Shown: piece after piece, positions 1 through 26,180 of the stretch
Layout: the number at the start of each line of letters is the position of its first letter
How positions within the stretch are numbered: position 1 is the stretch's first letter
Sequence record: MH719082.1
Strand: one strand, 5' to 3'
Source: Escherichia phage vB_EcoM_IME392
DNA length: 64,000 nucleotides
Notes under the pieces: model-generated
Told to the model about the DNA's origin: nothing
The model's input: only the letters and a program-made list of their open reading frames with translations
Database searches by the model: none
Program-made: the position numbers and the translations under genes

Positions 1-931
1 TCACATCCAGAGTTGATCCTGGTTGGAACTCTCGACCAACATCTTCCATTACGTATTCTAGAATACTGTGATCGCTATTATAACGAGAAGCAGCATCTTC
101 AAGAGTAGCGATGTAATGCTGGAAGTAGGTACGGATCTTATACCAGGAATTAAGTGATCCGAGATCAATCGTAGTTACCGGAGCTTCATTAATGTCGTCA
201 ACATAAGCTCGGATATTACTTACCTGCTTCTTGATGTTCGACACTTCCGGATACCAGTGGAGATCATCCGTCATCACCACATAGTTGCCCATATCTACTT
301 TGAGCATAGTTGCGATGATTTCCTGGATGATCGTGAACTCCACCAGATTAACGTTAGTCAATCCCCAGATTAGATCATTACTACGGTTGAATACCGTGCA
401 GTCCAGACCACCATTACGGTACTTAAACGATAGAGCAATGTTGCAGATCATATCTGCGGTATTGATGCTGCCGATGCTGTTTACCAAACCTACATCAGAA
501 TCACGGCTGGGATCGTGAATAGTAGCCACGCACTTACGGTTACCCAGGTCAGAACGGAGGCGGTCTGTTACAGTCTGGAGTTGATCGTAGTTATACAGAC
601 GCTCACCGTAAGCACCACGCCAGGTAACCATATCATCGCTAAACATCTTAGCGCGAGGAACCATAATCGACATCCAGTTATCGATTGCATAGCCACCAGA
701 CAGTACCCACAATACTTCCCCCATAATTCCGAGGATATTGTCTTTACGTTCTGGATGAGCCATCCAACGATTAATCGGATTACTTAACTCAACTACAGCA
801 TGACCGATGGATACTACCGCCGAAGAGTTAACAGAAGTTCTGGACTTCTGCAACTCACCAGCCTTATCCATAGTATTGATGCTGTTAACCAGGATTTCAG
901 TATTACTGTTACCGCGAATTACCGAGATCAT
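1..931 (-). CDS. Thymidylate-synthase-superfamily enzyme, probable deoxypyrimidylate hydroxymethylase (C-terminus lies beyond window edge)
   Basis: Not in the ORF track because there is no stop in the window. My translation of the minus strand from ATG 931-929 stays open for 310 codons (MISVIRGNSNTEILV...). TS-fold motifs: WRGAYGERLY, NRKCVATIHDPSRD, Cys segment ADMICNIALSFKY (Cys codon 445-443), RSNDLIWGLTNVN, TDDLHWY. The start overlaps the kinase stop as ATGA (928-931). Confidence 0.75.
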   Translation of the reverse strand, partial: MISVIRGNSNTEILVNSINTMDKAGELQKSRTSVNSSAVVSIGHAVVELSNPINRWMAHPERKDNILGIMGEVLWVLSGGYAIDNWMSIMVPRAKMFSDDMVTWRGAYGERLYNYDQLQTVTDRLRSDLGNRKCVATIHDPSRDSDVGLVNSIGSINTADMICNIALSFKYRNGGLDCTVFNRSNDLIWGLTNVNLVEFTIIQEIIATMLKVDMGNYVVMTDDLHWYPEVSNIKKQVSNIRAYVDDINEAPVTTIDLGSLNSWYKIRTYFQHYIATLEDAASRYNSDHSILEYVMEDVGREFQPGSTLDV

Positions 932-1650
932 TTAGAGTCCTTACGCACTGAATCAATAGACTTAACTGCAGAGGACAGTAACTCCAGACGGGCCTCCTGA
1001 GGGATCATACCAGATGGCTCATTCAGGATCATAATACCTTTACCAGTATTAGTAAAACGAGCTGTGATTGATCCAGGATACACCGGATGATTCAGAGTTA
1101 CAGAATTACACAACGCAGCACCGAATCGCTCCTCGTAGGCACGCATAGTTACCTTAAGGAGAGTAGAACTGACTGCTACAGAGTATTCCGGATCAACAAC
1201 ACGGAAGTTATTGTCCTCAATACTCTTATCCTTCGTATTGAAGAACAGAGTCATGTTATAATAATCAATAGACTCGTTACTGAGACGTAATGCCTCATCA
1301 CGAGCTTCCTGGCTAGCAAACATACTGTTATGCAGCAGGAAGTAAACGTACGAATCGAATACCGCACGATCACTGACGATCAACTCGCCACGATTGTAGG
1401 CATCCTTGAACATCTGAGTTCGCTGACGAATAAGACGCAGCTGGAACTCTACCGCTTCCATAGGATCTTCCACAGCTAAGCGCAGAATATCCATATGGGA
1501 TGTTACTCCCAGAGGAAGATGGTCACGAGTCTGTACTGCACGGAAGGTACATTCGGTTGATTCTTCCCAGCCTTTAGCCAGAGTAGATTTACCGGTACCC
1601 TGCGCACCAGACATAATTACACTGTAGCCTGGGATACTATAGTCTCTCAT
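928..1650 (-). CDS. P-loop kinase of deoxynucleoside/dNMP-kinase type (candidate hm-dNMP kinase or 5-hmdU DNA kinase)
   Basis: Walker A SGAQGTGKSTLAKG. IVSDRAVFDSYVYF resembles the ERS..D..F motif of dNK/TMPK-type kinases. I prefer ATG at 1650 (GGAGAGAATA-ATG) over the TTG at 1662 used by the track. Confidence 0.6.
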   Translation of the reverse strand: MRDYSIPGYSVIMSGAQGTGKSTLAKGWEESTECTFRAVQTRDHLPLGVTSHMDILRLAVEDPMEAVEFQLRLIRQRTQMFKDAYNRGELIVSDRAVFDSYVYFLLHNSMFASQEARDEALRLSNESIDYYNMTLFFNTKDKSIEDNNFRVVDPEYSVAVSSTLLKVTMRAYEERFGAALCNSVTLNHPVYPGSITARFTNTGKGIMILNEPSGMIPQEARLELLSSAVKSIDSVRKDSK

Positions 1651-1682
1651 TATTCTCTCCAATTAAGAATCTTTCCCACATT

Positions 1683-1713
1683 TTAACAGCCTTTCAAGAC
1701 CCTAAAAGAGCGG
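1683..1713 (-). promoter_or_regulatory. Conserved early/middle promoter-like motif, copy 1 of 15
   Basis: Minus strand reads CCGCTCTTTTAGGGTCTTGAAAGGCTGTTAA followed by AAT (TGTTAAAAT, an extended -10-like element). It lies about 30 nt upstream of the kinase ATG. Confidence 0.6.
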
Positions 1714-1739
1714 ACTAAAAAGGCTGGTGTAAATGTGAA

Positions 1740-2711
1740 CTAGCTAAACTTATACCAGCGAGGTCTCATACGGATCTCGTGATTCAGTTTATGTAGTTTC
1801 GAGAATTCGCAGAATGAGTTGGTGAACATCTGACGAGTATAGAACCGCTCATCCTCCGGCATGAAGTGGAACCATTTCTCCGGCTCCCATGCATACCCGA
1901 AATGAGCACATATCTCTTTGATGTTCTGATACCACCATTCCACGAACATCTGGTAGCCGCAAGGAGGGTTCTGGTCATTAAGCATGTACCATACCCCATC
2001 CTGCGTCCCGGGTCCACATACGATAGCATCGTTATCTGTGTACGCAGTCTCTTTAGAGTAGGACATAGTTGCCCAGCATTGATATGCCATGAACGGACCT
2101 AATCCAGATACCTGTAACAGATGCTCGATGGCCTCGGTAGCGAACGGAGACTTCCATGCCAGTAAGATAGGATCACTGTAGGTCTTCACCAGATAGGCTC
2201 TGGCAGCTACACTGTACTTAATATCCTCTGGACATACTTCATTAGCCATCTTAACTGCTGTGCTAAGGAAGTAGGCATTTGATTGCTGTGGAGCAGTGAA
2301 CGGAGGACCATCCTCATAACGACGTAGCTCTTCACGACCCATGTTATGTATGTCGTCATAGCTCATCTCATAAAGAGGAAGGACTCTGCGGAAGCGATCC
2401 ATATATGAATCACCACGGTTTATCATCTGGAAGAGTACCACGTTAAGCGCCTTACTCTCCCAGCTTAGGGAATCGTTCTCCAGAATGTTCTTGATAGCCC
2501 ATACTGTTTCACGATCGTGCTTACGGAACACGTTAGTGAATTTAAACTTACTAATCCACTTATGTTCTGTCCACGGAGGAGGTAGCTTAAGTATCTCCTT
2601 CTTATAATAAACCTCAGTCCGCTCGCGGTTATACTCCACATACTCACGTAGCTCCTCGGGATTTATCATCCCGAGTAACCCGTCGAAGTGCAAACCTAAC
2701 GGTTTAGACAT
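1740..2711 (-). CDS. Conserved 323-aa protein; tentative aGPT-Pplase-like (alpha-glutamyl/putrescinyl thymine pyrophosphorylase family) DNA hypermodification enzyme
   Basis: Clean ORF with a TAATG overlap to the upstream gene (2709-2713). The segment PPPWTEHKWISKFKFTNVFRKHDRETVW matches what I recall of aGPT-Pplase-type proteins (memory only). It sits between a DNA-glucosyltransferase-like gene and a P-loop kinase plus TS-like pair. Confidence 0.4.
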   Translation of the reverse strand: MSKPLGLHFDGLLGMINPEELREYVEYNRERTEVYYKKEILKLPPPWTEHKWISKFKFTNVFRKHDRETVWAIKNILENDSLSWESKALNVVLFQMINRGDSYMDRFRRVLPLYEMSYDDIHNMGREELRRYEDGPPFTAPQQSNAYFLSTAVKMANEVCPEDIKYSVAARAYLVKTYSDPILLAWKSPFATEAIEHLLQVSGLGPFMAYQCWATMSYSKETAYTDNDAIVCGPGTQDGVWYMLNDQNPPCGYQMFVEWWYQNIKEICAHFGYAWEPEKWFHFMPEDERFYTRQMFTNSFCEFSKLHKLNHEIRMRPRWYKFS

Positions 2712-3790
2712 TAAAGAATACCTTCTTTGGTAAAGTAGTCTATTACTTCATCCTGAAGTTCTTGTGCGTAATCCTTGCGCAGATATAGATTCTCATACTG
2801 ATGTTTCAGCAGAGCATCACGATCTTTCAGTTTCTCTGCAATCTCCGCATTACTGGAGACGATCAGAGGAGCCAGTAGCTCTTCGGGGACGCCGCTCCGG
2901 ATTATTGTTCCAGCAGCATCTTTATCCACCAGCATCAGAGTACCAGAGCTCAGGTATTCGTAATAACGGTTAGGTGGGCTGGTATAGAACGAATTACTGG
3001 AGTTCCAGTCTTCGATAAGCAGTACCGCTGCATATTTAGCCACTTCATCCAGCATCTCTGACAGCTTAAACTTAGGCAGCCAGTTAATCGGAGCAGCAGG
3101 TCCCAGCCACTTACGTTCTTTAGGATCCAGCTCTTCCCAGTTTTCCTGCTCGTAGCCGTCAAATCCTGCAAGACCACCAGTATGTTTAGCGATGGACATC
3201 TGAGCTTTGTAGCTCGGCACCGACATAAACAGTTCCAGACCATCTTGCTGGGAGAAGTACTGAGTGAACTTATGGAAGCGGCCTTCACGAGCAGCACCGT
3301 AATACAGCAGGCTATTGTCCGGCTTATCTGACGATCCATAGCGAGGCTTACGACCAGGAACGTAGGTAAGACGGTTCCAGTTAATGTGATGATAGTTCTC
3401 TTCGCTAGGAGAATACTGATTACCCCAGGAAGTACGTTCAAATGCTGCTACAACTTTAAATACAGTAGCTGCGGTGATGTGTCTCCACTGCGGACCCTGG
3501 ATACGCATCTTAGACGAGTAATCCTGTCCAATCCAGTAGAACTTAGCTCCGACATCTGCCTGGTCTACCCAGAACTTATACATCTCGTCGCGGAACTTAC
3601 AGAAGGTAGGAACACCATTGATGGCGATAATCACGTCATATTTAGTGCCATCTTCCATAGCCTTAACGAACTTAGGAGTATCGTCCAACAGGTCAGCTTG
3701 AAGTCCGTAGGCTAACCAGGAAGCCAGAGTATTACTGGCAATGATGGATTTATCGCTGCATGGCGAAAAGTTAGTTACTGCAATCTTCAT
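2711..3790 (-). CDS. T4 beta-glucosyltransferase-like DNA glycosyltransferase (GT-B, GT63-like)
   Basis: 359 aa versus 351 aa for T4 BGT. Colinear matches to my recollection of T4 BGT: MKIAVTNFS / MKIAIINMG; YDVIIAINGVPTF / YDRLIVVNSSINF; LLYYGAAREGRFHKF / DVIYGGSFRSGQRESK; AAVLLIEDWNSSNSF...TLMLVDKD / IAALIIGDKNYNDNF...AVMLIDEE. Confidence 0.6.
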   Translation of the reverse strand: MKIAVTNFSPCSDKSIIASNTLASWLAYGLQADLLDDTPKFVKAMEDGTKYDVIIAINGVPTFCKFRDEMYKFWVDQADVGAKFYWIGQDYSSKMRIQGPQWRHITAATVFKVVAAFERTSWGNQYSPSEENYHHINWNRLTYVPGRKPRYGSSDKPDNSLLYYGAAREGRFHKFTQYFSQQDGLELFMSVPSYKAQMSIAKHTGGLAGFDGYEQENWEELDPKERKWLGPAAPINWLPKFKLSEMLDEVAKYAAVLLIEDWNSSNSFYTSPPNRYYEYLSSGTLMLVDKDAAGTIIRSGVPEELLAPLIVSSNAEIAEKLKDRDALLKHQYENLYLRKDYAQELQDEVIDYFTKEGIL

Positions 3791-3818
3791 GTTTAATTTC
3801 TCCGTAGGCTGTCACAAT

Positions 3819-3849
3819 TTAACAGCCTTTTAGCTCATCAAAGAAGCGA
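3819..3849 (-). promoter_or_regulatory. Conserved promoter-like motif, copy 2
   Basis: Minus strand reads TCGCTTCTTTGATGAGCTAAAAGGCTGTTAA followed by ATT. The upstream half overlaps the stop of the GT2 gene. It lies about 25 nt before ATG 3790. Confidence 0.55.
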
Positions 3850-4872
3850 GTTAGCTGATGCCCAGCTCAGCCAGTTATCGTTGAGATCGGTCAGGTAGGA
3901 GTAATCCTTATTCAGACCGAATACAGTACGGTTAGTTCCGTCGAACTTCATTATACCAGCGCCAGGAGCTCTGATGATTGCATCTTCCGTAGCCAGACAA
4001 TATTCTTTCAAGTATTCCTGGATGTTGGGACGAATACGACGGAAGGAACTATCTGCCGAGTCATAGTGGAACATATCTGCGCAGTGCCACTGTACGTAGG
4101 ATTTATCCGGACGGCTGAGTAGTTCATTACGGGTAACCATATCTTTAGGAGAATATCCCAGCTTAGCTACAGTGACTTCGTGAATACCTCCACCATTAGA
4201 CGAAGTATCCATCAGCCAGTTTTCGTCCCAGTAGAACGAAGTACCAGTACCAGTTACCTGTCCAACCTTCCAGCCCATCGCCATACCTTTAAACAACAGG
4301 TAGCAATCTTCTCCTACGGTCAACTGTTGGAAGGTTATATCGAACAGCCAGAACATCTTCTCACTGGTCTTGACCATGATACCGAGGTCAGTGGCCGGAG
4401 CAGTGTTATTATGTGACTGACGATCGCATAGTTCAACAATCTTGTAGTTACGATTCTTGAAGCTACGGACGAACGCCATCTCAAACTCAGATCCCTCGAA
4501 GTCTATAACGGAACGGTCCAGATGGAAAATATTATCTGCGAACCAGACATCATCATCCACGAAGTAGCAGATGTCTGGACACCAGTTCTGATCCTCCATT
4601 AAAATCCATGCCTTATCAAGAGCATGAGCTCGGATTCTTCCGATTACCGGATTATCGTACTTAGGACGATGCCAGAAATTAAACTGCTCGTCCCCACCGA
4701 ACTGCTCTTCCAGAACTGCCTTATCTTCTTCGGAGGCATCCTGCATAAAGTAGAAGAAACGATACTCGATAGAGTCGTCAGTCTTCTTAGCATCTTTGAA
4801 CGACTGAATCTGACGGAGTACCGACTTCATACGATGATAGGTTGGGATGATAAAAGCCACTTTGGTAGTCAT
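3838..4872 (-). CDS. Family-2-type (GT-A) glycosyltransferase
   Basis: N-terminal VAFIIPTYHRMKSV (the GT2 signature IPTYNR-like) and a DXD-like YFVDDDVWF. Only 6 nt separate it from the upstream deacetylase gene. Confidence 0.7.
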   Translation of the reverse strand: MTTKVAFIIPTYHRMKSVLRQIQSFKDAKKTDDSIEYRFFYFMQDASEEDKAVLEEQFGGDEQFNFWHRPKYDNPVIGRIRAHALDKAWILMEDQNWCPDICYFVDDDVWFADNIFHLDRSVIDFEGSEFEMAFVRSFKNRNYKIVELCDRQSHNNTAPATDLGIMVKTSEKMFWLFDITFQQLTVGEDCYLLFKGMAMGWKVGQVTGTGTSFYWDENWLMDTSSNGGGIHEVTVAKLGYSPKDMVTRNELLSRPDKSYVQWHCADMFHYDSADSSFRRIRPNIQEYLKEYCLATEDAIIRAPGAGIMKFDGTNRTVFGLNKDYSYLTDLNDNWLSWASANSLL

Positions 4873-4878
4873 ATTTAT

Positions 4879-5490
4879 TTATCCAATTTGACGAACTAAG
4901 CGAAACCCTTCGGCGTACGGCCACTGGGCAGAATATCCACGTAAGGTGGCTAGAGCTAAGATACTCTGGGTATCTCGGTCTGACTTAATCTGGGAGTCGA
5001 ATCGTCCCATAGCCTGGCACTTACACTCAATATCGTCCTTATTCAGACGCTCGAAGTAATTAGGTTCCATCTGACCGAACTGGGTCAGGGACTCGGCATA
5101 CTCATATTCCAGGATAAGCCAGTTATACGCTCGGAGAGCTACACGAGCAGCATGATTAACTAGTTGATGGTCCTGGTGTAGGCTACTGAACGGAATATAG
5201 ACTACATCCGGCCTGATTTTAGCAACATAGTCCGCAATATCCTTAGCCAATTGCGGAATATCCTTCTGAGTCATACCATCGCCTGTGGAGGCATCGTTAC
5301 GCTCCAGGCAATGTACTTCTTTGATATTCGGATAGACACCGAATGCTGCTTCGGCTTCACCACGACGGGTCTCGTCCGGAGCAGTTACTTCGAGGATGAA
5401 AAATTGGTCGTCGCGGAATTTGCTCATAATACCTCCGCAACCCAGAATCTCATCATCGTGATGTGGGCTGATAATCAATCGTGACTTCAT
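4879..5490 (-). CDS. PIG-L/LmbE-family N-acetylglucosaminyl deacetylase
   Basis: LIISPHHDDEILGCGG (PIG-L motif HPDDE) and a later HQDHQLV metal-binding-type motif. RBS GAGGA lies before ATG 5490. Confidence 0.8.
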   Translation of the reverse strand: MKSRLIISPHHDDEILGCGGIMSKFRDDQFFILEVTAPDETRRGEAEAAFGVYPNIKEVHCLERNDASTGDGMTQKDIPQLAKDIADYVAKIRPDVVYIPFSSLHQDHQLVNHAARVALRAYNWLILEYEYAESLTQFGQMEPNYFERLNKDDIECKCQAMGRFDSQIKSDRDTQSILALATLRGYSAQWPYAEGFRLVRQIG

Positions 5491-5505
5491 TATTAATCCT
5501 CGCTA

Positions 5506-5541
5506 CACAAAAATGGGGTTAGGCCGTAGAGACCTAACCCC
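5506..5541 (-). terminator. Rho-independent terminator-like hairpin
   Basis: 9-bp stem ggggttagg / cctaacccc (5515-5523 / 5533-5541), followed on the minus strand by TTTTT (plus-strand aaaaa 5509-5513). It shares the 17-nt string ctacacaaaaatggggt with the terminator at 13341-13357. Confidence 0.6.
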
Positions 5542-5557
5542 GTACGCCTCTGACACC

Positions 5558-5588
5558 TTAACAGCCTTTTAGGTCATCAAACAGGAGG
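5558..5588 (-). promoter_or_regulatory. Conserved promoter-like motif, copy 3
   Basis: Minus strand reads CCTCCTGTTTGATGACCTAAAAGGCTGTTAA followed by GGT. It overlaps the 3' end of the transporter gene and lies upstream of the 5515-5541 hairpin. Confidence 0.5.
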
Positions 5589-6959
5589 AGTTTCCTTAGC
5601 CAAGAATACTTTAGGTACAAAGATCTTGAGGAACCCGAATAGAATACACAATACCCCAATCAGTACCGGAACAGCCGATACAGCTACCAGAGTCTTCGTT
5701 ACAGTTACTACGTCACCACCTGCCCAGTTAAGTGCAGCAGCAACTACACCCATGCTTACAATCCAGAATACACGAGTTCTAGGAGCGGTCATGGACTCTA
5801 CCGTAATACCTGCTGAGTCATGACCTGTAATAAAGAACAGAATCACAGACACGAGGGTAATTACTGAGAATATCCATCCGCCTGGGAAATTAGCCAGAAG
5901 CTGGAAGATATCCTGAGCACCATGTTGCAAACCGGCTACACCGAATACGGTAAACCATACGTTACTGATAATGGTAGGGAACAGTACACATCCCAGGATC
6001 AGTTCGCGAATAGTACGGCCGTAAGAGATACGTGCCACAAACGCTCCGACGAATAATGCCCAACCTACCCAGGCTGCATAGTAAGCATAAGGCCAGCTAG
6101 CCAGCCATTGCTTCTCTTCAGCAGTACTGCCAATGTTTACCGACATAGGAATAATCTGGAGCAGATAGCTGCCAGAATAGGTGATGGTCTTCCAGAGGTA
6201 TTCAAAGAATGTACCACTTACAGCAACGAATGCCATAATAGATAGAGCTACGATTACATTATATCTGGATAACCACTTAACCCCACGATCGACACCAGTT
6301 ACGGCACTAAGTACAGTGCCCAGAGTCAGGAGTGCGATAATGGTGTAAGGACCAACATCCACACCAAGGAACTCTTTAAATCCAGAACTGATCGGGCCTA
6401 CTGCGTAGACGAACGACAGGGTTAAGCCTATGATGGTCGAGAAGAGTAAGCTTATCGTATTAAGGTTATTCAGAGTTCGGGACTTGAATAACTGATTAAG
6501 CGGACGGTCTTCACCACGTACATGCAGTAAGTACCCGAATGCCACCCCTACGACTGCATACACAGCCCATGCATTAAGTCCCCAGTCAAAGAAGGTAGTT
6601 ACCATATTCTGACGTTCGGACATACCCTCCTGATGATGGTACATAGGTTCGAGTACGCCATAATAAATCATGGATACACCCATACCGGTACTAAACATCA
6701 TAGAGTAATAGGTAAAGCGATTGTATTTCGGAGTACCTTTACCCAGCTTAATGTTACCATGTTTGCTGAATACAAAGAATGCCAGGAACGCCAGGAAGAT
6801 CAGCGAAGACCAGGTAAATATGAATCCATACTGAGATATAAATACAGACTTACTCCAGTCCATTACAGCACCAAACTGGGTGGGAGCAAACATAATGGCG
6901 AGTACAATACCCACCGTTACCAGCACCGTCCCCCAGGTAACTACCTTTGAATCGGACAT
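5577..6959 (-). CDS. BCCT-family (betaine/carnitine/choline-type) secondary transporter
   Basis: 460 aa, hydrophobic throughout with about 11-12 predicted helices by eye. FSKHGNIKLGKGTPKYNRFTYYSMMFSTGMGVSMIYYGVLEP matches the BCCT N-terminal block (RLG...F..SWFAMLFAAGMGIGL.FWGVAEP). WPYAYYAAWVGWALFVGAFVARISYGRTIRE matches the BCCT signature W.....W..W.PFVG.FIARIS.GRTIRE. Confidence 0.75.
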   Translation of the reverse strand: MSDSKVVTWGTVLVTVGIVLAIMFAPTQFGAVMDWSKSVFISQYGFIFTWSSLIFLAFLAFFVFSKHGNIKLGKGTPKYNRFTYYSMMFSTGMGVSMIYYGVLEPMYHHQEGMSERQNMVTTFFDWGLNAWAVYAVVGVAFGYLLHVRGEDRPLNQLFKSRTLNNLNTISLLFSTIIGLTLSFVYAVGPISSGFKEFLGVDVGPYTIIALLTLGTVLSAVTGVDRGVKWLSRYNVIVALSIMAFVAVSGTFFEYLWKTITYSGSYLLQIIPMSVNIGSTAEEKQWLASWPYAYYAAWVGWALFVGAFVARISYGRTIRELILGCVLFPTIISNVWFTVFGVAGLQHGAQDIFQLLANFPGGWIFSVITLVSVILFFITGHDSAGITVESMTAPRTRVFWIVSMGVVAAALNWAGGDVVTVTKTLVAVSAVPVLIGVLCILFGFLKIFVPKVFLAKETPPV

Positions 6960-6962
6960 TGA

Positions 6963-7871
6963 TTATTCCTCAATTACGCCCTTAGCGATTAACTGGCGAC
7001 GGACGTATGCGTAGCCAGCAGGTGAAGTAGCGAGGACGATGTCCGCACTACGGAAGTTGGTTTCGATATAGAAGCACTCCTGAAGATCCCGAGTACAGAA
7101 GAGCTCAGTACTCATCATACCCTCGCGTACGTTACATGCATCTGCAACGAATTGCGCAACATCTTCGAAGTGGTCTACCGAATGACTATAGCCGAATCCA
7201 CGGGCATCAGTAGATATAACGTAGTTAGGGCAGTACGGAGTGAAGTCAGTATCTTCGTAGGATTTACCCTGGATAGTGAAGATATCTGCATAGTCCTTGA
7301 ACCCGCTCGGGCTAACCAGAAGATCCCAGGCAACTACCATACCATCGATAACATCTGCCTGAAGTACCAGAGAGGTAGTATATTCGTCCGGTGCCTTATC
7401 GCAGACCAAAATTGGGGAGTCTCCCAGAAGGTCCGACATAGTGCCCGCACCCTTGCCCCCGTGAACACGATCACGGCGTACAAACGCCTCCTGAGGCCTC
7501 TGGTACAGTCTGAACGACGGTACAATCAGCGAATCAGGCAGAGTTCCCAGGTTAGCTTCGGAGCGAAGGCAGGATAATTGGTCAGCTTTAGACCACGTAC
7601 TTTCGATAGCGTGCAGATCGTTACCGATTTTGGTATAGATATAGCTTTCCGGATTACGGCACTTACCCTGATTCAACTCTTCGATAACCGAGTCGAAATA
7701 AGGAAGTCGTACTGATCCCTCACGAGGAGCAGTTAACGCTACTGAGCCATGCTTGGTATGATCCTGATCAACTACCATAACCTGGTCCAGACTTACACCC
7801 ATCTTAAGAATCTGGGATAATGTAGCTGCCGTGTGATTAGTGCAGCCAATCATCAAATCTAACTTCTTCAT
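6963..7871 (-). CDS. ATP-grasp-like ligase (tentative)
   Basis: 302 aa. Glycine-rich RRDRVHGGKGAGT and C-terminal FYIETNFRSAD (the E-x-N metal-binding motif of ATP-grasp enzymes). A 3-nt gap to the transporter gene implies co-transcription. Confidence 0.4.
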   Translation of the reverse strand: MKKLDLMIGCTNHTAATLSQILKMGVSLDQVMVVDQDHTKHGSVALTAPREGSVRLPYFDSVIEELNQGKCRNPESYIYTKIGNDLHAIESTWSKADQLSCLRSEANLGTLPDSLIVPSFRLYQRPQEAFVRRDRVHGGKGAGTMSDLLGDSPILVCDKAPDEYTTSLVLQADVIDGMVVAWDLLVSPSGFKDYADIFTIQGKSYEDTDFTPYCPNYVISTDARGFGYSHSVDHFEDVAQFVADACNVREGMMSTELFCTRDLQECFYIETNFRSADIVLATSPAGYAYVRRQLIAKGVIEE

Positions 7872-7899
7872 TTTAATTCCTCAGTTAACTTGTACAACC

Positions 7900-7930
7900 T
7901 AACAGCCTTTCGAACCCTAAAAAGAGCGAA
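7900..7930 (-). promoter_or_regulatory. Conserved promoter-like motif, copy 4 (variant CTAACAG)
   Basis: Minus strand reads TCGCTCTTTTTAGGGTTCGAAAGGCTGTTAG followed by GTT. It lies about 28 nt upstream of ATG 7871. Confidence 0.5.
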
Positions 7931-7965
7931 ATAATAGATATCTAGCCATCTCGTAAGATGGCTAT
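7931..7965 (-). terminator. Terminator-like hairpin after the methyltransferase gene
   Basis: 9-bp stem tagccatct / agatggcta (7944-7952 / 7957-7965) with a 4-nt loop. The minus-strand downstream tract is T-rich but interrupted (GATATCTATTATTT). Confidence 0.45.
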
Positions 7966-7972
7966 GTATATA

Positions 7973-8713
7973 TTACTTTAATTCGGAGAGATCTGCGATC
8001 TTCACCTTAGCTGATACATCCCAGATTCCTTCACCAAATCCGGTATCTTCCAGCAGCTTAGGCACTTCACGTTTCTGTACCTTAGATTGCTCGTACTTAA
8101 GCAGAGGAATATTACCGGTCTTATCTGATTGATCCCACAGATAAGTAGCAGCACCGATGTTATCGAACAGTGCGAGATCTGGATTAAACTGGGTAAGGAG
8201 TCGGCAGTCCCAGTGAGACTTATGTTCCTCGAAAGGATTAGTTTCCGTGCCACGCTGACGATACTCATAGTTAGGAGTACCGATCACGATTTTAGCCTTA
8301 GACTGGAATAGCTTAGACAACACCATAAGCCCGTCTTCGCTATCCAGATGCTCCAACACATCCAGCCAGATAATAGTGCCGAATTTATCCAGCTCTTCAA
8401 TAGGAAGATCTTTCAACAGTTCAACGATATTGCAGATATAGATATCGCTATATACATTTACACTGCCTTTGATGTAGTCTTCGCAGATGTCCAGACCTGT
8501 AATCTGACCATCGAATCCTGCGTTACGGAGAGCAAGACCAATTTCTCCACGACCTAATCCCATATCCAGGATTGGCCCGGAGATAATTTCGTTACGGAGC
8601 ATCCATTGGAGAAAGTGCTTCTGGACTAAGTAGGAGGTGCCTCCGTTGCCCAGTGAAGCCTTCGTGACCTTAGTACCAGGAACGAAATTACACTCGATAT
8701 GTTTACCAAACAT
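7973..8713 (-). CDS. Class I SAM-dependent methyltransferase
   Basis: Motif I ILDMGLGRGEIG, GLDICEDY, and the IIWLDVLEHL block typical of Methyltransf_11/23-type enzymes. Confidence 0.75.
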   Translation of the reverse strand: MFGKHIECNFVPGTKVTKASLGNGGTSYLVQKHFLQWMLRNEIISGPILDMGLGRGEIGLALRNAGFDGQITGLDICEDYIKGSVNVYSDIYICNIVELLKDLPIEELDKFGTIIWLDVLEHLDSEDGLMVLSKLFQSKAKIVIGTPNYEYRQRGTETNPFEEHKSHWDCRLLTQFNPDLALFDNIGAATYLWDQSDKTGNIPLLKYEQSKVQKREVPKLLEDTGFGEGIWDVSAKVKIADLSELK

Positions 8714-8784: not shown

Positions 8785-8812
8785 AAAAATTAGGGTGGCC
8801 GAAGCCACCCTA
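8785..8812 (-). terminator. Rho-independent terminator (UUCG loop)
   Basis: Stem tagggtggc / gccacccta (8791-8799 / 8804-8812). The loop cgaa is UUCG on the minus strand. A T5 run follows on the minus strand (plus-strand aaaaa 8785-8789). Confidence 0.75.
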
Positions 8813-8817
8813 GTTAG

Positions 8818-10065
8818 TTACAGTTTACCGATCATCTTCTGAATCATCTCGTCAGAAGTCTGATTCTCTACCTTAGCACGACGTTCTTGCAGATTAGCAA
8901 TGCGGTCGTCGTGATCTTTCTTACGTAGCATGCTGATGCTACGGCTAAGGCAGGAATTCAACACTTCCTGGGTAATACCGAGAGCTTTGATGATCTGAGC
9001 ATCAGACTTATCCTGCATAACCAGCTCGCCCACTTTAGGAAGAATCTGGTAAATCTCGATGTCTCGGTCAATCTTCTTAAGAGACTCAGTCTTATGGACG
9101 GAGAATGCCTGATTGTAGAGAGCCATCGTGACTGCAATCCAGTCGCGAATACCCATCGTCACCAGTTGACCATTGTAGGCTACCTGGATACGATGCGAGC
9201 GGTTCATGTAAGCAATATTCATGCATGCTTCGTGAACCTCGTCCATATCGATGGTCCTGATACGGGGAGCCTTCATTACTCGGATATAGATCTTATCCTT
9301 GGACATGTTCTTGACCAGGATCTTACCTTCTGATAACCACTTATTCAGGAACCCGATGCGAGGAGTAATTACCTCACCAGACCCGATGATGTCGATGGTG
9401 TCGGTATTGACGCGAGTTACCTTAAGGGTAAGGCCTAAGCGACCTACACCAGTTTCCCATAAGGACTTAAGGTCTGACTTACTCGGCACGATATCATACC
9501 CGTACTGAGCCTTAAGCAGATTATAATCGTCATGCTTGTAGGCTTCCAGCAGACTCTCGTAAGTGAATGCTGGGATACGGGACTGAATACCAGTAGCCCA
9601 TGAGAAGGTACCATACATCAGAGCATACGGAATAGGCACTGGAAGGTATGCGTATTCCATCTTCTCTTCACCTTCAACCTGCGGAACATAGTCCGCTAGA
9701 CCGAAGTAGTATTCTGCACGATCTTCGTTCAGGCCAACCTTCGTGTAACGAGGAGCAGCACCAGGAACTTCTTCCAGCAACTTAACGCCGAAAGATCCCT
9801 GACCATCAATAGCACCGATGCGAGCAAGACGGGAAATAGTCCCATCGATAGACTGGTCACCGAATGGGTGTAGCGACTGAGTTTCTGAGATAGCGCTCAG
9901 AGTCCCCACCAGCTTCCCACGAGCAATGCTATTCAGAGCCATGTAGATACGGCGCTGGGCAGGAATCAGGCCATCGATACCGGGAACTACACGATGAAGA
10001 GCACAATACACACTGTAGTCAGTGTAGTTCTTGGTGATGAATTCAGAAATCTTTACCTGTTCCAT
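8818..10065 (-). CDS. DNA topoisomerase II, DNA-cleavage subunit (T4 gp52-like / GyrA N-terminal-like)
   Basis: DGLIPAQRRIYMAL (GyrA/ParC motif DGLKPVQRR) and AAPRYTKVGL (active-site Tyr context). Adjacent to the ATPase/Toprim subunit. Confidence 0.85.
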   Translation of the reverse strand: MEQVKISEFITKNYTDYSVYCALHRVVPGIDGLIPAQRRIYMALNSIARGKLVGTLSAISETQSLHPFGDQSIDGTISRLARIGAIDGQGSFGVKLLEEVPGAAPRYTKVGLNEDRAEYYFGLADYVPQVEGEEKMEYAYLPVPIPYALMYGTFSWATGIQSRIPAFTYESLLEAYKHDDYNLLKAQYGYDIVPSKSDLKSLWETGVGRLGLTLKVTRVNTDTIDIIGSGEVITPRIGFLNKWLSEGKILVKNMSKDKIYIRVMKAPRIRTIDMDEVHEACMNIAYMNRSHRIQVAYNGQLVTMGIRDWIAVTMALYNQAFSVHKTESLKKIDRDIEIYQILPKVGELVMQDKSDAQIIKALGITQEVLNSCLSRSISMLRKKDHDDRIANLQERRAKVENQTSDEMIQKMIGKL

Positions 10066-10067
10066 AA

Positions 10068-12053
10068 TTACTCCTTAAACAGACCGTAGTCTTCTAACAG
10101 TTGGCGACGAGCACGAGATGAGTACAGCAACTTACGAGCGGCATCGAGATGCTCTTCATTATCATCGTAGGTTACCTGGATAAGACGGCGAGATTTCGAG
10201 TTAATGATGAATTGCTCAGTTTCTTCTTCGGTATATGACCCGAGTCCCTTACGACGTTCAACATAGCACTTATCGAAGTCGATCTTATCCTTCTCGTCAG
10301 CGTAGTAGAACTCGGTCTTCTTACCATTCTTAACTACATAGAACGGAGCTTCGAGTTTATACAGACGACCATCTTTAACCAGCTCTGGAGCATGGATAAG
10401 GAAGATTGAGCTAATGAGGTTACTGATGTGCTGACCATCAACATCAAGGTCGGTCATAATGATGATCTTACCGTAACGAGCCTTATCTATGTCAAACATC
10501 TGGCCCATACCACACCCGATAGTATTGATGATCGCCAGCAGCTCTGGGTTATTCACGAATTCCATGATATCCATGGAAGCCGAGTTACGCATCTTACCGC
10601 GAAGAGGAAGCACCGACTGATACTCATTACGCAACTTGATGATATTACCAGAAGCAGACGGACCCTCTGTGATGAACAGCTCACGAAGATCCCAGCGGTC
10701 GGACGGAGATTCGTAGATCTTCGCCATGTCACCATCCATAGCGGCCTTACGGTGATCATCACCCATCACCAGCTTAGACTTAATGAAGTCCATGTTGGAG
10801 AGTTTATTCAGGCTAGCTTTGTAAGCCAGGATCTTGGCAATCAGAGCATCAAAGAATTGCTTATTCTTCTCGTATACCAGGCTGAAGTAGAATGTGAGCT
10901 GACTCAGGCATTCTTTCTCGTAGAAGAAGTACTCGCCATAATAGTCGTAATCGTTGATTTGCTCATCATTCAGCATCAACTTATTCTTAGCCATGATTTC
11001 CCAGTCGCTCCAGGACATACCGAGGCCAGTTAACTTCTCCTTAGTCTGCGAGGAGAATGCTGTACGATAGCTGGAGAAGACGTTAGTGAACACGATCAAT
11101 CCCAGCTTAGCATCACCAACAGTGATAGCAGAGTTAACTTTATTCAGCATACCGCCGAGCGCTCTCGTGACCAGCTTCTCATGCAGACCACCATGCGGGT
11201 TATTGATCAAGTTGATCATGTCTACATGGGAGTAGGACATATTCTTATCAGAGTAGCCCAACTCACCAGAGAAGGTCAGACGATCGTTGAACGAGAACTC
11301 GTACTTGACTGTAGTATCGAGGAACAGCTTCTCATTCTCTGCAACATCACGACGAAAATCCCAGGTAGCCAGAGCTTCACCATTAACGGTGATAGTTGCA
11401 TCACGACCAATCAGGGAGATCTTCAGAGGAACAGTATCCACATCAGACCAGATGCTGCGGTACAGAGTCGCATCAGGCACCATGAAGACTGCTGTGGAGA
11501 AGTCGGTAGCCTTTAACGTCTCGAGCACTTCGTCTGGGAAGCCATCGTCGTGAAGATCATTCAGATCATTGATCACTCCATCGATTTCCATAACACCACG
11601 GCGGAATCCGAGGACATAGAACTGACCTGGCTCCATAGGGATGTGTGCCTTATCTCCCTGCATTACGCGACGGATTACAACGAATCGCTCGGACACTGCG
11701 TTAACAGCGGAGCTACCTACGCCATGGGTACCAGAGGTAATTTCACGGTTATCGCCCAGCTTAGAGCCAGCATGCAGATCTGTTACAGTAGAGAACAGAA
11801 TAGATTTAGACGGATCTTCCGGATCAGCGTAGATAGGAATACCACGTCCGTTATCGGTAACCAACTTGTAGGCTTCACGGTTAATGATCTGCACTAGGTT
11901 AGCATAACCATTAAGCAGCTCGTCCTCCGCATTATTGATTATTTCCTGGAGAGGATGAGTGTAGTTAATCGGGTCACCGAGATACATGGATACGTTCTGA
12001 CGAACGTTATCAGGGTAACGCAATCTTGTGATTTCAATAGCATGTTCTGACAT
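10068..12053 (-). CDS. DNA topoisomerase II, ATPase + Toprim subunit (T4 gp39-like / GyrB-like)
   Basis: NNAEDE, DNGRGIP, GTHGVGSSAVNAVS (GHKL ATPase blocks), ITEGPSASG and MTDLDVDGQHI (Toprim). Confidence 0.9.
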   Translation of the reverse strand: MSEHAIEITRLRYPDNVRQNVSMYLGDPINYTHPLQEIINNAEDELLNGYANLVQIINREAYKLVTDNGRGIPIYADPEDPSKSILFSTVTDLHAGSKLGDNREITSGTHGVGSSAVNAVSERFVVIRRVMQGDKAHIPMEPGQFYVLGFRRGVMEIDGVINDLNDLHDDGFPDEVLETLKATDFSTAVFMVPDATLYRSIWSDVDTVPLKISLIGRDATITVNGEALATWDFRRDVAENEKLFLDTTVKYEFSFNDRLTFSGELGYSDKNMSYSHVDMINLINNPHGGLHEKLVTRALGGMLNKVNSAITVGDAKLGLIVFTNVFSSYRTAFSSQTKEKLTGLGMSWSDWEIMAKNKLMLNDEQINDYDYYGEYFFYEKECLSQLTFYFSLVYEKNKQFFDALIAKILAYKASLNKLSNMDFIKSKLVMGDDHRKAAMDGDMAKIYESPSDRWDLRELFITEGPSASGNIIKLRNEYQSVLPLRGKMRNSASMDIMEFVNNPELLAIINTIGCGMGQMFDIDKARYGKIIIMTDLDVDGQHISNLISSIFLIHAPELVKDGRLYKLEAPFYVVKNGKKTEFYYADEKDKIDFDKCYVERRKGLGSYTEEETEQFIINSKSRRLIQVTYDDNEEHLDAARKLLYSSRARRQLLEDYGLFKE

Positions 12054-12089: not shown

Positions 12090-12120
12090 TTAACAGCCTT
12101 TGGAGGCCTCAAAGGAGCGG
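12090..12120 (-). promoter_or_regulatory. Conserved promoter-like motif, copy 6
   Basis: Minus strand reads CCGCTCCTTTGAGGCCTCCAAAGGCTGTTAA followed by ACT. It lies inside the last 10 codons of ORF 12090-12752 and about 35 nt before ATG 12053. Confidence 0.55.
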
Positions 12121-12752
12121 TTCACGAACAGGACTAAATCCTCTACTCTGGACTTATCTACCCACTCTGTTCTTCCTGGTAAGGACCTATTAGACTCGGA
12201 GAAGAAAGATAATCTCACTTTTGATTCTAAATCCACTCCCTCTTCTTTAGGCATCTCGATTAAGATTAGCGGGGTCATACCGATGCCTAATCCATCTAAT
12301 CTTCTTTCTATATTTGAAGTAATCCCATATTTAGCATTTCCAGATTGGTCCAATACGATATAAAAGACCACCTTACCTTCTGGAATGGTAGATATCGCTA
12401 GGTTCTTAATCACAGAGTTAGCGTATTCAGGATTCAACCATCGTTTATGATTTGAAGAGGATATCACTTTAGACATCTTCTTCTGGTAGTTCTCATCTTC
12501 CCACATTTTAATGTTGCGATTAGTCATGGAAACAGACCTAGCCCTGGTGGCGCATTCTGATCTTCCACATGTAGGACGATAGCCCTTAATCACGGATTTA
12601 AAGGAGCAGGGTTTTCCACATGAACATATTTTTACAGGAAAGAATTTTAAGTAATATTCATGCGGAGTTAAGCCATGAGATTTGGCATGGGAGGGAAATG
12701 CCTGGCCTCTTACTTCGGCAGAGCATATTCTACATTTATGATTCATAATCAT
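12090..12752 (-). CDS. Free-standing homing-endonuclease-like protein (N-terminal Zn-ribbon, DNA-binding repeats, C-terminal T5orf172/GIY-YIG-like domain)
   Basis: CRICSAEV...SHAKSHGLTPHEYY; repeats W.D.NY.KKMS / RWLNPEY; C-terminal VVFYIVLDQSGNAKYGITSNIERRL. Visibly more AT-rich than the flanking topoisomerase genes. Confidence 0.5.
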   Translation of the reverse strand: MIMNHKCRICSAEVRGQAFPSHAKSHGLTPHEYYLKFFPVKICSCGKPCSFKSVIKGYRPTCGRSECATRARSVSMTNRNIKMWEDENYQKKMSKVISSSNHKRWLNPEYANSVIKNLAISTIPEGKVVFYIVLDQSGNAKYGITSNIERRLDGLGIGMTPLILIEMPKEEGVDLESKVRLSFFSESNRSLPGRTEWVDKSRVEDLVLFVNRSFEASKGC

Positions 12753-12990
12753 ACCACTTAGTTAATTCAAGGAAGTCATCCATCGCGGAATTAAAGAAGG
12801 AGTCTATCTCCTTAGCCATTTCCTTGGCGAAGCGACCAGATTCGGTCGACATCACTACCTTAGCCTCGCCCATAGGGTGCTTGACCACTTCGTAGATTCC
12901 CAGATTTGGGTAATACACTATGCTGGATAGGAAGTTTACAGACTTAACCACCACAGTATTGAATTGAGTTACTTCCACCATCTTAATCAT
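12736..12990 (-). CDS. Hypothetical 84-aa protein (paralog of the next gene)
   Basis: ORF with overlapping junctions. Shares the pattern Y.P....Y.V ... DSF....D.FL with ORF 12987-13226. Confidence 0.5.
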   Translation of the reverse strand: MIKMVEVTQFNTVVVKSVNFLSSIVYYPNLGIYEVVKHPMGEAKVVMSTESGRFAKEMAKEIDSFFNSAMDDFLELTKWYDYES

Positions 12991-26104: not shown

Positions 26105-26180
26105 TGGTGGTCCATACTGGTTTCGAACCAGTGACCAAGCGATTATGAGTCGCCTGCTCTCACCACTGAGCTAATGGACC
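26105..26180 (-). tRNA. tRNA with CAU anticodon (elongator Met, or Ile2 if lysidinylated)
   Basis: Hand-folded cloverleaf: GGTCCAT-TA-GCTC-AGTGGTGA-GAGC-A-GGCGA-CTCATAA-TCGCT-TGGTC-ACTGG-TTCGAAA-CCAGT-ATGGACC-A-CCA. All stems are perfect. G1-C72, so not an initiator. Confidence 0.9.

Follow-up and report, generated by a model that had tools for sequence, protein, structure and literature searches.

On the minus strand of the window (the whole stretch of 64,000 nucleotides of Escherichia phage vB_EcoM_IME392 that was analysed here), an ORF with an ATG start at positions 5577..6959 encodes a 460-aa, core-only secondary carrier of the BCCT family (GenBank AXY86083.1). Profile comparison confirmed that its sequence is that of a genuine full-length BCCT carrier: PF02028, the Pfam BCCT profile, matched with E=1e-92 (311.6 bits, cut-off 27) over carrier residues 7-446 and profile positions 1-481 out of 485. 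Both sequence blocks from which the original prediction had recognized the family are present, MFSTGMGVSMIYYGVLEP at residues 88-105 and WVGWALFVGAFVARISYGRTIRE at residues 297-319. A crude hydropathy method distinguished 11 clear segments and a Gly-rich TM3 (residues 82-103), that is, about 12 transmembrane helices where at least 10 had been expected. The protein already bears the name 'putative Bcct family transporter' in GenBank, so the presence of a BCCT carrier in IME392 is not new in itself.

The best solved relative of the carrier is BetP (E=2.7e-48), the Na+/glycine-betaine symporter of Corynebacterium glutamicum and structural archetype of the BCCT family, whose 12-TM core aligns with the phage protein from end to end at 30% identity. 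As in BetP, the Gly-rich TM3 carries a GMG motif, and the TM8 tryptophan motif, the ARISxGRTIRE signature and the TM4 aromatic box for the onium head group are all present. The S1 aromatic box is kept (W189/W194/Y197/W374 by alignment, in BetP numbering), as are W377, F380, T246, T467 and R387/R392. Unlike BetP, the carrier is encoded by a phage and coupled to a ligase, it is devoid of N- and C-terminal osmosensing domains (the terminal regulatory extensions of BetT are also missing), and five substitutions (G153→S, W373→A, W371→Y, T250→L and S468→G) alter part of the surroundings of S2 and the Na site. The Ser at BetP position 153 is common to the phage carrier and YeaV of E. coli. The Asp153 of BetT, the choline:H+ transporter of E. 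coli, is absent, and so are L246, M250, Q380 and Y377, the Na-independent substitutions of CaiT, the E. coli carnitine/γ-butyrobetaine antiporter. The carrier scored below all NCBIfam equivalog or subfamily cut-offs (in bits, betaine BCCT 244 against 650, BetT 155 against 695, PRK09950 111 against 647, CaiT 104 against 541 and TIGR00842 232 against 407), and by these cut-offs it does not belong to the BetT, CaiT, YeaV or glycine-betaine BCCT orthologues.

Secondary transporters had been described as rare in virulent phage genomes, and our survey agrees: a tblastn search with the carrier matched 26 of 50,697 phage records, most of which look bacterial or mis-binned from their sizes and annotations, and only EP_H11 and two Vibrio phages among them look like bona fide phages. 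The carrier gene was not copied from the host: its product is 24% identical to BetT, 20% to CaiT and 24% to YeaV of E. coli, and the gene found no DNA match by blastn in 5,426 E. coli genomes. Phage BCCTs form one clade with bacterial sisters (NJ bootstrap 91), and the closest bacterial relatives of the carrier come from a Neisseria MAG (42% identity across the alignment) and from Zobellella (37%), whose sister BCCT is encoded in a locus for the catabolism of carnitine and quaternary amines. In pattern-based scans of IMG/VR, JGI metagenomes and GTDB genomes, neither the BCCT clade nor the ligase encoded beside the carrier yielded any relative. Host capture was rejected in view of these identities, the missing E. 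coli DNA match, the equivalog scores and the phage clade.

As the gene family is otherwise bacterial, one could imagine that the carrier gene is an inert passenger, or a captured host gene in decay, as the original prediction had itself considered for a betT/caiT fragment. This seems to us hardly credible. The BCCT gene is strongly constrained by purifying selection, with dN/dS values of 0.03-0.05 (0.05 for the neighbouring ATP-grasp gene) on which the passenger or pseudogene reading was rejected; at least 11 cluster members retain an intact ORF, and the gene is conserved in divergent phage lineages while remaining distant from the E. coli paralogues. The window itself belongs to a myovirus that encodes replication functions of its own, and the ORFs scanned in it included none for lysogeny; a lytic lifestyle of IME392 is plausible.

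The gene that precedes the carrier on the same strand (6963..7871) encodes a 302-aa protein annotated as 'hypothetical protein' (GenBank AXY86084.1). It has no significant sequence match in Pfam, NCBIfam, PHROGs or PDB, and no HMM shows an ATP-grasp domain. The ATP-grasp character that the original prediction had sensed in this neighbour was borne out by structure prediction followed by a fold search, which recovered the three-domain fold. AF2 reached a pLDDT of 39.5 with 5 sequences and yielded a usable model after the addition of five distant homologues, which came from an exhaustive profile search. The closest folds are those of carboxylate-amine and carboxylate-hydroxyl ligases (Ddl/VanA, L-amino-acid ligases, LysX and PylC), and the ATP-grasp kinases ITPK1 and PPIP5K are also among the matches. 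No sequence-profile similarity could be detected between the 302-aa protein and Ddl/VanA, the L-amino-acid ligases, LysX/ArgX or PylC. As candidates for the catalytic motifs (a glycine-rich loop with Lys/Arg, and an acidic metal site of the form E/D…E-x-N), F130, R132, G138, K140, E256, E270 and R274 are invariant in the family alignment, and N272 is present in 8 of 9 sequences. The spacing of the putative metal site resembles that of its presumed DdlB counterpart (D257/E270/N272). The model thus identifies the 302-aa neighbour as a predicted, previously unrecognised ATP-grasp enzyme. Its family is tiny, and nearly all members are found on phage-like contigs.

At the junction of the two genes (6955..6975, minus strand), the ligase gene ends with GAG GAA TAA, followed by TCA and then by the ATG of the BCCT gene. 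The ligase ORF stops 3 nt ahead of this ATG, and a GAGGA Shine-Dalgarno motif lies within its final codons, 7 nt before the BCCT start. In homologous pairs, the genes overlap (contigs L007, L017 and L020) or are separated by a 3-nt gap (L015). On sequence grounds, the BCCT gene is very probably translationally coupled to the ligase gene. Two terminator-like hairpins on the minus strand flank exactly these two genes: the one at 5515..5541, immediately 3' of the BCCT stop, has an 11 bp stem with 7 GC pairs followed by ATTTTTGTGT, and the one at 7943..7964 is located between the methyltransferase and ATP-grasp genes. Both are consensus matches only, in a region that is enriched in terminator-like sites (15 against 6.4±1.9 expected). 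Upstream of the pair, no conspicuous sigma-70-like promoter was seen, and the region contains 16 promoter-like sites against 21.5±4 expected. As a separate terminator-bounded unit, the ligase and BCCT genes could be a self-contained moron.

Such a moron-like arrangement would fit an auxiliary function in host physiology, whereby the carrier would import compatible solutes such as betaine, choline or carnitine for the osmotic and metabolic fitness of the infected cell, the ATP-grasp enzyme would have an unrelated role and no DNA chemistry would be involved. The identity of the closest solved relative, BetP, points in the same direction, and many characterised BCCT carriers, including BetP and BetT, import osmoprotectants. 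The pair is also missing from a related phage, Acinetobacter Ab1-TPeters, which exhibits glycosyltransferases at the equivalent position and no BCCT gene, so that the two-gene unit is accessory. We nevertheless consider a purely physiological role unlikely. The carrier, which aligns with BetP over the core alone, lacks the extensions for osmosensing and regulation that BetP and BetT carry at their termini, and the history of the gene pair, described below, speaks against an unrelated role of the ATP-grasp enzyme.

The succession of an ATP-grasp gene and a BCCT gene recurs in four divergent phage lineages, one comprising the window, EP_H11 and contigs L015 and L021, and the others represented by contigs L007, L017 and L020. 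Coupling to the ligase has been kept even though identity between lineages is only about 41% for the BCCTs and about 30% for the ligases. Every contig long enough for judging has the pair in an hmdU island, next to 5-hmdU and thymidylate-synthase (TS)-type genes. Where contigs reach 15 kb or more, which is the case in three lineages, genes for a TS-like protein, an AAA_28 kinase and an HD protein are found within about 10 kb of the pair; the distance to the HMUDK_hel gene is up to about 5 kb in L015 and up to about 10 kb in L017. The surrounding gene order has been rearranged between lineages. The most divergent ligase homologue, the fifth, on contig L018, is followed by a transporter of another family (MFS, Sugar_tr, E=3e-37), which argues that this enzyme family acts on imported solutes and again disfavours a carrier serving the infected cell on its own. 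The homologues on L014 and L016 are not followed by a transporter gene, although both contigs are very short. The functional link between carrier and ligase that the original prediction had proposed is thus strengthened by the recurrence of the pair in four divergent lineages inside hypermodification islands.

In IME392, the surroundings of the BCCT gene have, as judged by their gene content, the components of a thymidine-hypermodification island based on 5-hmdU, with a TS homologue and kinase components, which bears out the predicted setting among DNA-modification genes. All of these genes are on the minus strand. The 3' part of the TS homologue, a probable dUMP hydroxymethylase, occupies positions 1..931 and continues past the window start; the syntenic gene of EP_H11 is annotated 'thymidylate synthase', and the Pfam family Thymidylat_synt was found in L015, L007 and L017. 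A P-loop kinase (AAA_28, with a thymidylate-kinase-like PHROG) is encoded at 928..1662; it could act as an hm-dUMP kinase or supply the kinase half of 5-HMUDK, and in L007, L015 and L017 its gene likewise has the TS-like and HD genes as neighbours. The product of 1740..2711 is a 5-hmdU DNA kinase helical-domain protein (aGPT-Pplase clade 1; HMUDK_hel, PF18723, E=3.2e-35) whose homologues in RP13 and ViI-like phages include one with the annotation 'alpha-glutamyl/putrescinyl thymine pyrophosphorylase clade 1'. IME392 and EP_H11 are indeed among the RP13-like phages predicted to contain a sugar-bearing hypermodified thymidine (PMC12686479; bioRxiv 10.1101/2025.03.26.645540).

Further ORFs, again on the minus strand, lie between these genes and the carrier. 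The 359-aa protein encoded at 2711..3790 gives a hint of a GT-B C-terminal domain below the cut-off (Glyco_trans_1_2, E=0.023) and has no PDB match. The 344-aa protein encoded at 3838..4872, which has a paralogue in L015, is possibly a GT-A glycosyltransferase by its motifs alone (IIPTYHR… and DDD); no match was found for it in Pfam, PHROG or PDB. The deacetylase that had been predicted on one side of the carrier is well supported: 4879..5490, downstream of the BCCT gene, encodes a 203-aa zinc deacetylase of the PIG-L/LmbE family (PF02585, 52.9 bits, cut-off 28.2), with PDB matches to TT1542 and diacetylchitobiose deacetylase and with PHHDDE and HQDH zinc-site motifs. It is 46% identical to its homologue in L007, and of the three lineages whose contigs extend far enough for judging, two have the PIG-L gene adjoining the BCCT gene. 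The methyltransferase predicted on the other side fared less well. The 246-aa product of 7973..8713 (minus strand) is a probable class-I SAM methyltransferase with only sub-threshold matches (Methyltransf_25, _23, _31 and _11) and an ILDMGLGRG stretch that we read by eye as motif I; its position is filled by other genes in the sister lineage L015/L021, and it is a variable gene outside the conserved core.

As far as we know, all characterised thymidine hypermodifications take their appended group from intracellular pools, be it of amino acids, polyamines or nucleotide sugars. The same TS-like hydroxymethylase, P-loop kinase and HMUDK_hel protein are encoded in the clusters of ViI, M6, PaMx11, ΦW-14 and SP10 (PMC5889632, PMC8989533) and of RP13/SP-15-like phages (PMC12686479), and variable tailoring enzymes are clustered with this core both in characterised systems and in IME392. 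In contrast to the characterised clusters, islands of the IME392 type have a transporter and an ATP-grasp ligase as conserved members. Characterised pathways append intracellular amino acids or polyamines via ADDT, whereas no ADDT/aGPT-Pplase2 (clade-2) transferase was detected in window ORFs 928-8713; a weak ADDT match and an HMUD2 match were seen only in the divergent contig L017. The original prediction had also raised an analogy with the 5-NeOmdU of phage ViI. This analogy is weak, because the aminoethoxy group of ViI is derived from serine by an amino-acid:DNA transferase and a PLP decarboxylase, and not from an imported alcohol (PMC8989533). Term searches of the full texts found no mention of a transporter in the 2021 pathway paper (PMC8989533) or in two papers on the RP13/SP-15 group, nor of ATP-grasp in the former, and our literature search found no paper tying a BCCT or other transporter to thymidine hypermodification.

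We propose that the BCCT importer and the ATP-grasp ligase may constitute an import-and-ligate module, through which a quaternary-ammonium compound of external origin would enter DNA hypermodification, a proposal to which we give slightly less than an even chance. The carrier would be a functional importer of a small molecule whose head group is a quaternary ammonium (or a similar onium); carnitine, γ-butyrobetaine, glycine betaine and choline are candidate solutes, and to our knowledge none of them is made de novo by E. coli. Co-translated with the carrier as the other half of a two-gene module, the phage-specific ligase would use ATP to join the imported solute to a partner through an acyl-phosphate, with the solute acting either as carboxylate donor (betaine or carnitine type) or as nucleophile (the choline hydroxyl, compare D-Ala-D-lactate ligases). 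As the module is located in a 5-hmdU-based island, the likeliest partner would be a side chain or sugar under construction on thymidine in phage DNA, for example the amine that the adjacent PIG-L deacetylase might release from a GlcNAc-type sugar. We infer the direction of transport, the substrate, the chemistry of the ligase and the attachment of the product to DNA. The more specific claim, that IME392-like phages covalently attach a quaternary-ammonium metabolite that their host cannot synthesize to hypermodified thymidine by means of an importer and a new ATP-grasp DNA-tailoring ligase, is tentative and, in our estimation, rather doubtful.

All this suggests that a nutrient imported from outside the cell may supply part of the decoration on the phage DNA. 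If true, this would be the first DNA hypermodification with a building block brought in from the environment by a virus-encoded transporter; the phage DNA would carry a permanent positive charge, and its modification would depend on nutrients. An importer and a ligase in such a cluster would add environmental metabolites as a new class of input and ATP-grasp as a new enzyme class in DNA-tailoring chemistry, and the two proteins would be reusable parts. One would then predict that the chemistry of phage DNA, and hence restriction evasion and sequencing behaviour, vary with the growth medium or the gut diet. On the other hand, a nutrient-dependent DNA modification would be a liability outside nutrient-rich habitats, which speaks against placing the product of the module on DNA.

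The import-and-ligate proposal is reminiscent of phosphocholine decoration by the lic pathway, in which LicB is the transporter, LicA the kinase, LicC the cytidylyltransferase and LicD the transferase. Both share the logic of an importer dedicated to an exogenous onium compound, one beyond the cell's own synthesis, with the attachment of this compound to a macromolecule entrusted to enzymes encoded alongside. Unlike the lic pathway, the IME392 window has no homologues of LicA, LicC or LicD, the partner is an ATP-grasp enzyme, and a BCCT protein replaces the LicB-type carrier. In Vibrio phages 1.031.O and 150E35-1, a lic-like set was found, consisting of a fused cytidylyltransferase/choline kinase, a BCCT and LicD in succession. 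This kinase, together with ITPK1 and PPIP5K among the fold matches of the 302-aa protein and a CTP_transf_like gene four genes downstream of the pair in L017, is consistent with trapping by phosphorylation: the ATP-grasp protein would be a kinase (compare inositol-phosphate kinases) that phosphorylates imported choline or carnitine for later transfer, in the manner of LicA. We regard such a kinase as quite improbable.

The lic-like module of the Vibrio phages has no recognisable hmdU genes within ±8 kb. It could thus be argued that the product of the IME392 pair is also not on DNA, being either a small-molecule conjugate or a decoration of glycans or proteins on the surface of host or phage, akin to the phosphocholine added by lic genes, with a role for example in superinfection exclusion or anti-defence, and that its position in the island is incidental; the PIG-L and glycosyltransferase-like neighbours would suit glycan chemistry equally well. 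Nevertheless, no choline kinase, cytidylyltransferase or LicD was found in the window, the linkage with TS, kinase and HMUDK genes persists through rearrangement in three lineages, and hypermodified thymidine was predicted independently for the RP13-like phages, including IME392 and EP_H11 (PMC12686479; bioRxiv 10.1101/2025.03.26.645540). A product located elsewhere than on DNA therefore appears improbable to us, about as much as the role in host physiology considered above. The Vibrio-phage modules offer an independent precedent for phage BCCTs feeding a decoration pathway. Even with a product off DNA, the occurrence of two transporter families next to the ligase and of a lic-like BCCT module in Vibrio phages would point to under-appreciated solute-uptake functions in phages.

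A BCCT gene on its own would be ordinary; what is unexpected in Escherichia phage vB_EcoM_IME392 is the conserved pairing of this transporter with a predicted ATP-grasp enzyme within thymidine-hypermodification islands. The window is a myovirus segment encoding tail sheath, baseplate and tail spike proteins, an SbcCD-like nuclease, helicases and topoisomerase II subunits, with every gene from 1 to ~29 kb on the − strand. The gene set around the BCCT gene is a thymidine-hypermodification island as defined by Lee et al. (PMC5889632, PMC8989533). It comprises a thymidylate-synthase homologue that runs off the window (up to 931; recognized by comparison with the close Escherichia phage EP_H11 and with contig L015), a P-loop kinase (928-1662; profile match), an HMUDK_hel/aGPT-Pplase clade 1 protein (1740-2711; E=3e-35), two proteins of 359 aa (2711-3790) and 344 aa (3838-4872) for which profile searches returned no family, a PIG-L/LmbE deacetylase (4879-5490), the BCCT gene (5577-6959), a gene for a 302-aa protein (6963-7871), a probable class-I methyltransferase (7973-8713) and the topoisomerase II A (8818-10065; profile match) and B (10068-12053; EP_H11 annotation and homology) subunits. 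The deacetylase and methyltransferase had been proposed as flanking genes; the former exceeds its Pfam cut-off (52.9 vs 28.2 bits), whereas the latter, with sub-threshold Pfam matches, is only probable. IME392 and EP_H11 have been counted among the SP-15/RP13-like phages predicted to have hypermodified thymidine, in work that leaves the transporter unmentioned (PMC12686479; bioRxiv 10.1101/2025.03.26.645540).

The original prediction of a polytopic BCCT carrier was confirmed as an observation, while its interpretation was supported in part. ORF 5577..6959 (−, ATG start, 460 aa) contains both motifs quoted for the family and matches PF02028 over practically its full length (E=1e-92, 311.6 bits, cut-off 27). 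Among solved structures, the betaine symporter BetP comes closest (E=2.7e-48), and the ORF also matches one PHROG family of unknown function. Hydropathy reveals 11 clear hydrophobic segments which, together with a Gly-rich, partly unwound TM3, give the 12 helices expected for BCCT. The N-terminus lies 5 residues ahead of TM1, the C-terminus 18 residues past TM12, and the alignment to BetP is confined to the membrane core; the regulatory extensions found at the termini of BetP and BetT are thus missing from the carrier. An exact look-up retrieved it as AXY86083.1, ‘putative Bcct family transporter’ (vB_EcoM_IME392, genome of 116,460 bp), so that the gene is already on record in GenBank. Its counterpart in EP_H11, the sole close genome in the phage collection (93% nucleotide identity), is annotated ‘high-affinity choline uptake protein BetT’. 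As a protein, the carrier is already annotated and represents a divergent new branch of a familiar transporter family.

Capture of a host gene that persists as an inert passenger is effectively refuted. The carrier shares only 24% identity with E. coli BetT, 20% with CaiT and 24% with YeaV, its NCBIfam equivalog scores fall far under the cut-offs, blastn against 5,426 complete E. coli genomes gave no match, and dN/dS is 0.030 vs EP_H11 and 0.048 vs L015. Neighbour-joining places the phage BCCTs in a single clade (bootstrap 91), whose nearest relatives are proteins of an uncultured Neisseria MAG and of Zobellella aerophila (joint clade bootstrap 100). The Zobellella locus holds a BKACE gene, a 3-hydroxyacyl-CoA (carnitine) dehydrogenase, a γ-butyrobetaine-hydroxylase-like gene, a Rieske oxygenase with its reductase, an α/β-hydrolase and three more BCCT genes, a neighbourhood of carnitine and quaternary-amine catabolism.

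Carrier residues were mapped onto BetP, with a numbering check that recovered all expected BetP residues. The central aromatic box (W189, W194, Y197, W374) is kept, as are W377, F380, T246, T467, R387 and R392; clade-wide changes are G153→S, W373→A or N, W371→Y or F, T250→L and S468→G. The Asp153 of BetT (H+/choline type) is missing, and so are the Na-independent substitutions of CaiT. In BCCT structural work, an intact aromatic box points to a substrate whose head group resembles trimethylammonium. The conserved residues thus indicate that the carrier probably takes such an onium compound, and choline, glycine betaine, carnitine and γ-butyrobetaine would fit alike. Such solutes, together with the likeness to a betaine symporter, could also suit a role in host physiology or osmoprotection; considering the conserved partner of the carrier and its location among hypermodification genes, we find this explanation unlikely.

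This partner is the 302-aa product of ORF 6963..7871 (−), directly upstream, which had been described as an ATP-grasp-like ligase. Every sequence profile failed to place it in the ATP-grasp or any other family, and searching 1.84 billion representative proteins exhaustively with a profile produced only nine matches, but predicted structure and fold search bear out the ATP-grasp part of the description. A confident AlphaFold2 model built from a 9-sequence alignment including the homologues found (pLDDT 79.3, pTM 0.82) is disordered only in a glycine-rich loop (residues 128-156), all of its best 50 Foldseek matches in the PDB are ATP-grasp enzymes, and it agrees with the BFVD model made independently for the identical protein (TM 0.92). 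Two sets of near-invariant residues may represent the glycine-rich loop (F130-x-R132…G138-G-K140) and the metal site (E256…E270-x-N272-x-R274, with N272 replaced by Asp in the most divergent homologue) of ATP-grasp enzymes; they would correspond to the sites of DdlB and biotin carboxylase. On the predicted structure, the protein is an ATP-grasp enzyme. It could in principle trap the imported solute by a kinase-type reaction, which we rate as very improbable.

The two genes behave as a unit. Three nucleotides separate the ATP-grasp stop from the BCCT start codon, as originally reported, and the GAGGA Shine-Dalgarno of the BCCT gene is located within the 3′ end of its neighbour. Terminator-like hairpins on the − strand, at 7964-7943 just 5′ of the ATP-grasp gene and at 5541-5515 just 3′ of the BCCT gene, enclose exactly this pair. 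With a third strong hairpin (8791-8812, −), they divide the island into the topoisomerase genes, the methyltransferase alone, the pair, and PIG-L onward. Between 600 and 12400, 15 terminator-like sites were found vs 6.4±1.9 expected (~2.3-fold); sigma-70-like promoters were not enriched.

Genomic context was checked for every retrievable homologue of the ATP-grasp protein, and the same order, with direct adjacency, recurs in four lineages. The first comprises the window, EP_H11, L015 and L021 (BCCT identity 87-98%, ATP-grasp 71-98%); in L007 (BCCT ~41%, ATP-grasp 30%) the genes overlap, in L017 (41% and 30%) they overlap by 1 nt, and in L020 (ATP-grasp 37-39%) a partial downstream ORF is a BCCT that also carries the GMGVS motif. 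The most divergent homologue (P0103, 24%; L018, 204-1785, on a 1.8-kb contig) is followed by an overlapping MFS Sugar_tr transporter (E=3e-37) in the place of BCCT, and the ATP-grasp family is thus paired with a second transporter family. In two very short contigs (L014, L016), the following genes are non-transporters. All contigs of at least 15 kb have TS-like, AAA_28 kinase and HD genes within ~10 kb of the pair, joined by HMUDK_hel in L015 and L017 and by weak ADDT and HMUD2 matches in L017. The module is rare: pattern scans of IMG/VR, JGI metagenomes and GTDB genomes found neither the BCCT clade nor the ATP-grasp family.

The identities and folds of the two proteins, the conservation of the pair, its island context and purifying selection are established. 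We tentatively favour, at slightly less than an even chance, a two-gene import-and-ligate module feeding thymidine hypermodification, a proposal in which transport direction, substrate, ligation chemistry and DNA target are all inferred. The carrier would bring in an exogenous onium compound that, to our knowledge, E. coli is unable to synthesise, and the ATP-grasp enzyme would link it to a partner via an acyl-phosphate. The solute could serve as the acid (betaine, carnitine) or equally as the nucleophile (choline hydroxyl), in the manner of D-Ala-D-lactate ligases, which rank with the top structural matches of the ATP-grasp protein. Given the conserved location of the pair, the partner is likely a substituent on 5-hmdU-derived thymidine; with PIG-L adjacent, a deacetylated GlcNAc-type sugar amine is an attractive, if speculative, acceptor. 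The analogy originally drawn with 5-NeOmdU is mechanistically weak, as that group comes from serine (PMC8989533).

Alternatively, the pair could make a non-DNA product or a surface decoration. Vibrio phages 1.031.O (MG592415; 6824-9822 of L009) and 150E35-1 (OX241562; 3827-6828 of L010), with genomes of ~150-160 kb, carry a lic-like module of three adjoining genes: a fused cytidylyltransferase and choline-kinase (366 aa), a BCCT (411 aa, PF02028 E=1e-45, annotated merely ‘TMhelix containing protein’) and an overlapping LicD-family transferase. This set represents a complete lic-like phosphocholine pathway with BCCT replacing LicB, and no hmdU genes occur within ±8 kb of it. Judged by gene content, this independent case shows phages feeding a covalent decoration pathway by means of BCCT carriers, a parallel to the import step proposed above. 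The window, in contrast, has no lic genes, and the pair resides among hypermodification genes; a non-DNA product or surface decoration appears improbable to us. Many other BCCT matches in the phage collection look bacterial or mis-binned. Staphylococcus ‘phage’ records of 153-386 kb, ‘Acinetobacter phage MD-2021a’ contigs carrying betT, betU and yeaV, and short fragments from Listeria and Salmonella are cases in point, and phage-transporter counts taken naively from the collection would therefore be inflated.

Seen as a system rather than a single protein, the island is a novel version of the thymidine-hypermodification cluster, with importer and ATP-grasp enzyme as conserved parts; ADDT, the transferase of characterised clusters, is not detectable in the window. 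Literature searches found nothing joining ‘5-hmdU DNA kinase’ with ‘transporter’, no mention of BCCT in the papers listed for bacteriophage hypermodified DNA, and nothing relevant on choline transporter and LicD. Gene order flanking the pair varies among lineages: PIG-L adjoins it in the window lineage and L007 but not in L017, the methyltransferase is limited to IME392 and EP_H11, and the Acinetobacter phage Ab1-TPeters (PP763253; 11704-15593 of L019), a backbone relative that shares the order helicase, exonuclease, SbcC, topoisomerase II, lacks a BCCT and fills the position after topoisomerase II with two glycosyltransferases and a 516-aa protein without assigned function. This position is a variable modification island, and the pair thus belongs to a variable tailoring cassette.

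In L015 (3674-7578) and L021 (3-2838), whose BCCTs are 87-89% identical to the carrier, five or six other genes stand where the window has the methyltransferase. Their products include a glycosyltransferase-like protein with a DXD motif, a paralogue of the 344-aa protein, a CxxCxxCC protein, a phosphatidylserine-decarboxylase-like protein (31 bits, cut-off 22) and a 286-aa protein with weak ATP-grasp likeness. Even close relatives thus evidently differ in their tailoring chemistry. The pair of L017 (5912-14536) lies alongside a GT4 glycosyltransferase, a cupin (mannose-6-P-isomerase type), a small cytidylyltransferase, an inositol-1-phosphate-synthase-like protein and the ADDT, HMUD2 and HMUDK_hel matches, in what looks like an unusually rich hypermodification cluster.

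The topoisomerase II A orthologue of the window (8818-10065) is without an intein; its homologue in L007 (9312-11708) is split by one (Pfam Intein_splicing) that includes an HNH-type domain (weak HNH_3). Relative to EP_H11, which is contiguous there, the window carries a ~640-bp insertion (12124-12760) that separates topoisomerase II B from the adjacent gene. Its ORF 12090..12752 (−, 220 aa) gave no significant Pfam match, has Cys/His-rich N-terminal motifs and, by eye, a GIY-YIG-like stretch, and may be a homing-endonuclease-type mobile gene. Finally, tRNA-Met(CAT) (26105-26180, −) and tRNA-Arg(TCT) (26650-26725, −) lie within an ORF-poor stretch (~25.1-29.3 kb) that ends at a −/+ strand switch near 29.3 kb, not far from where the cumulative GC skew reaches its minimum (28-30 kb).
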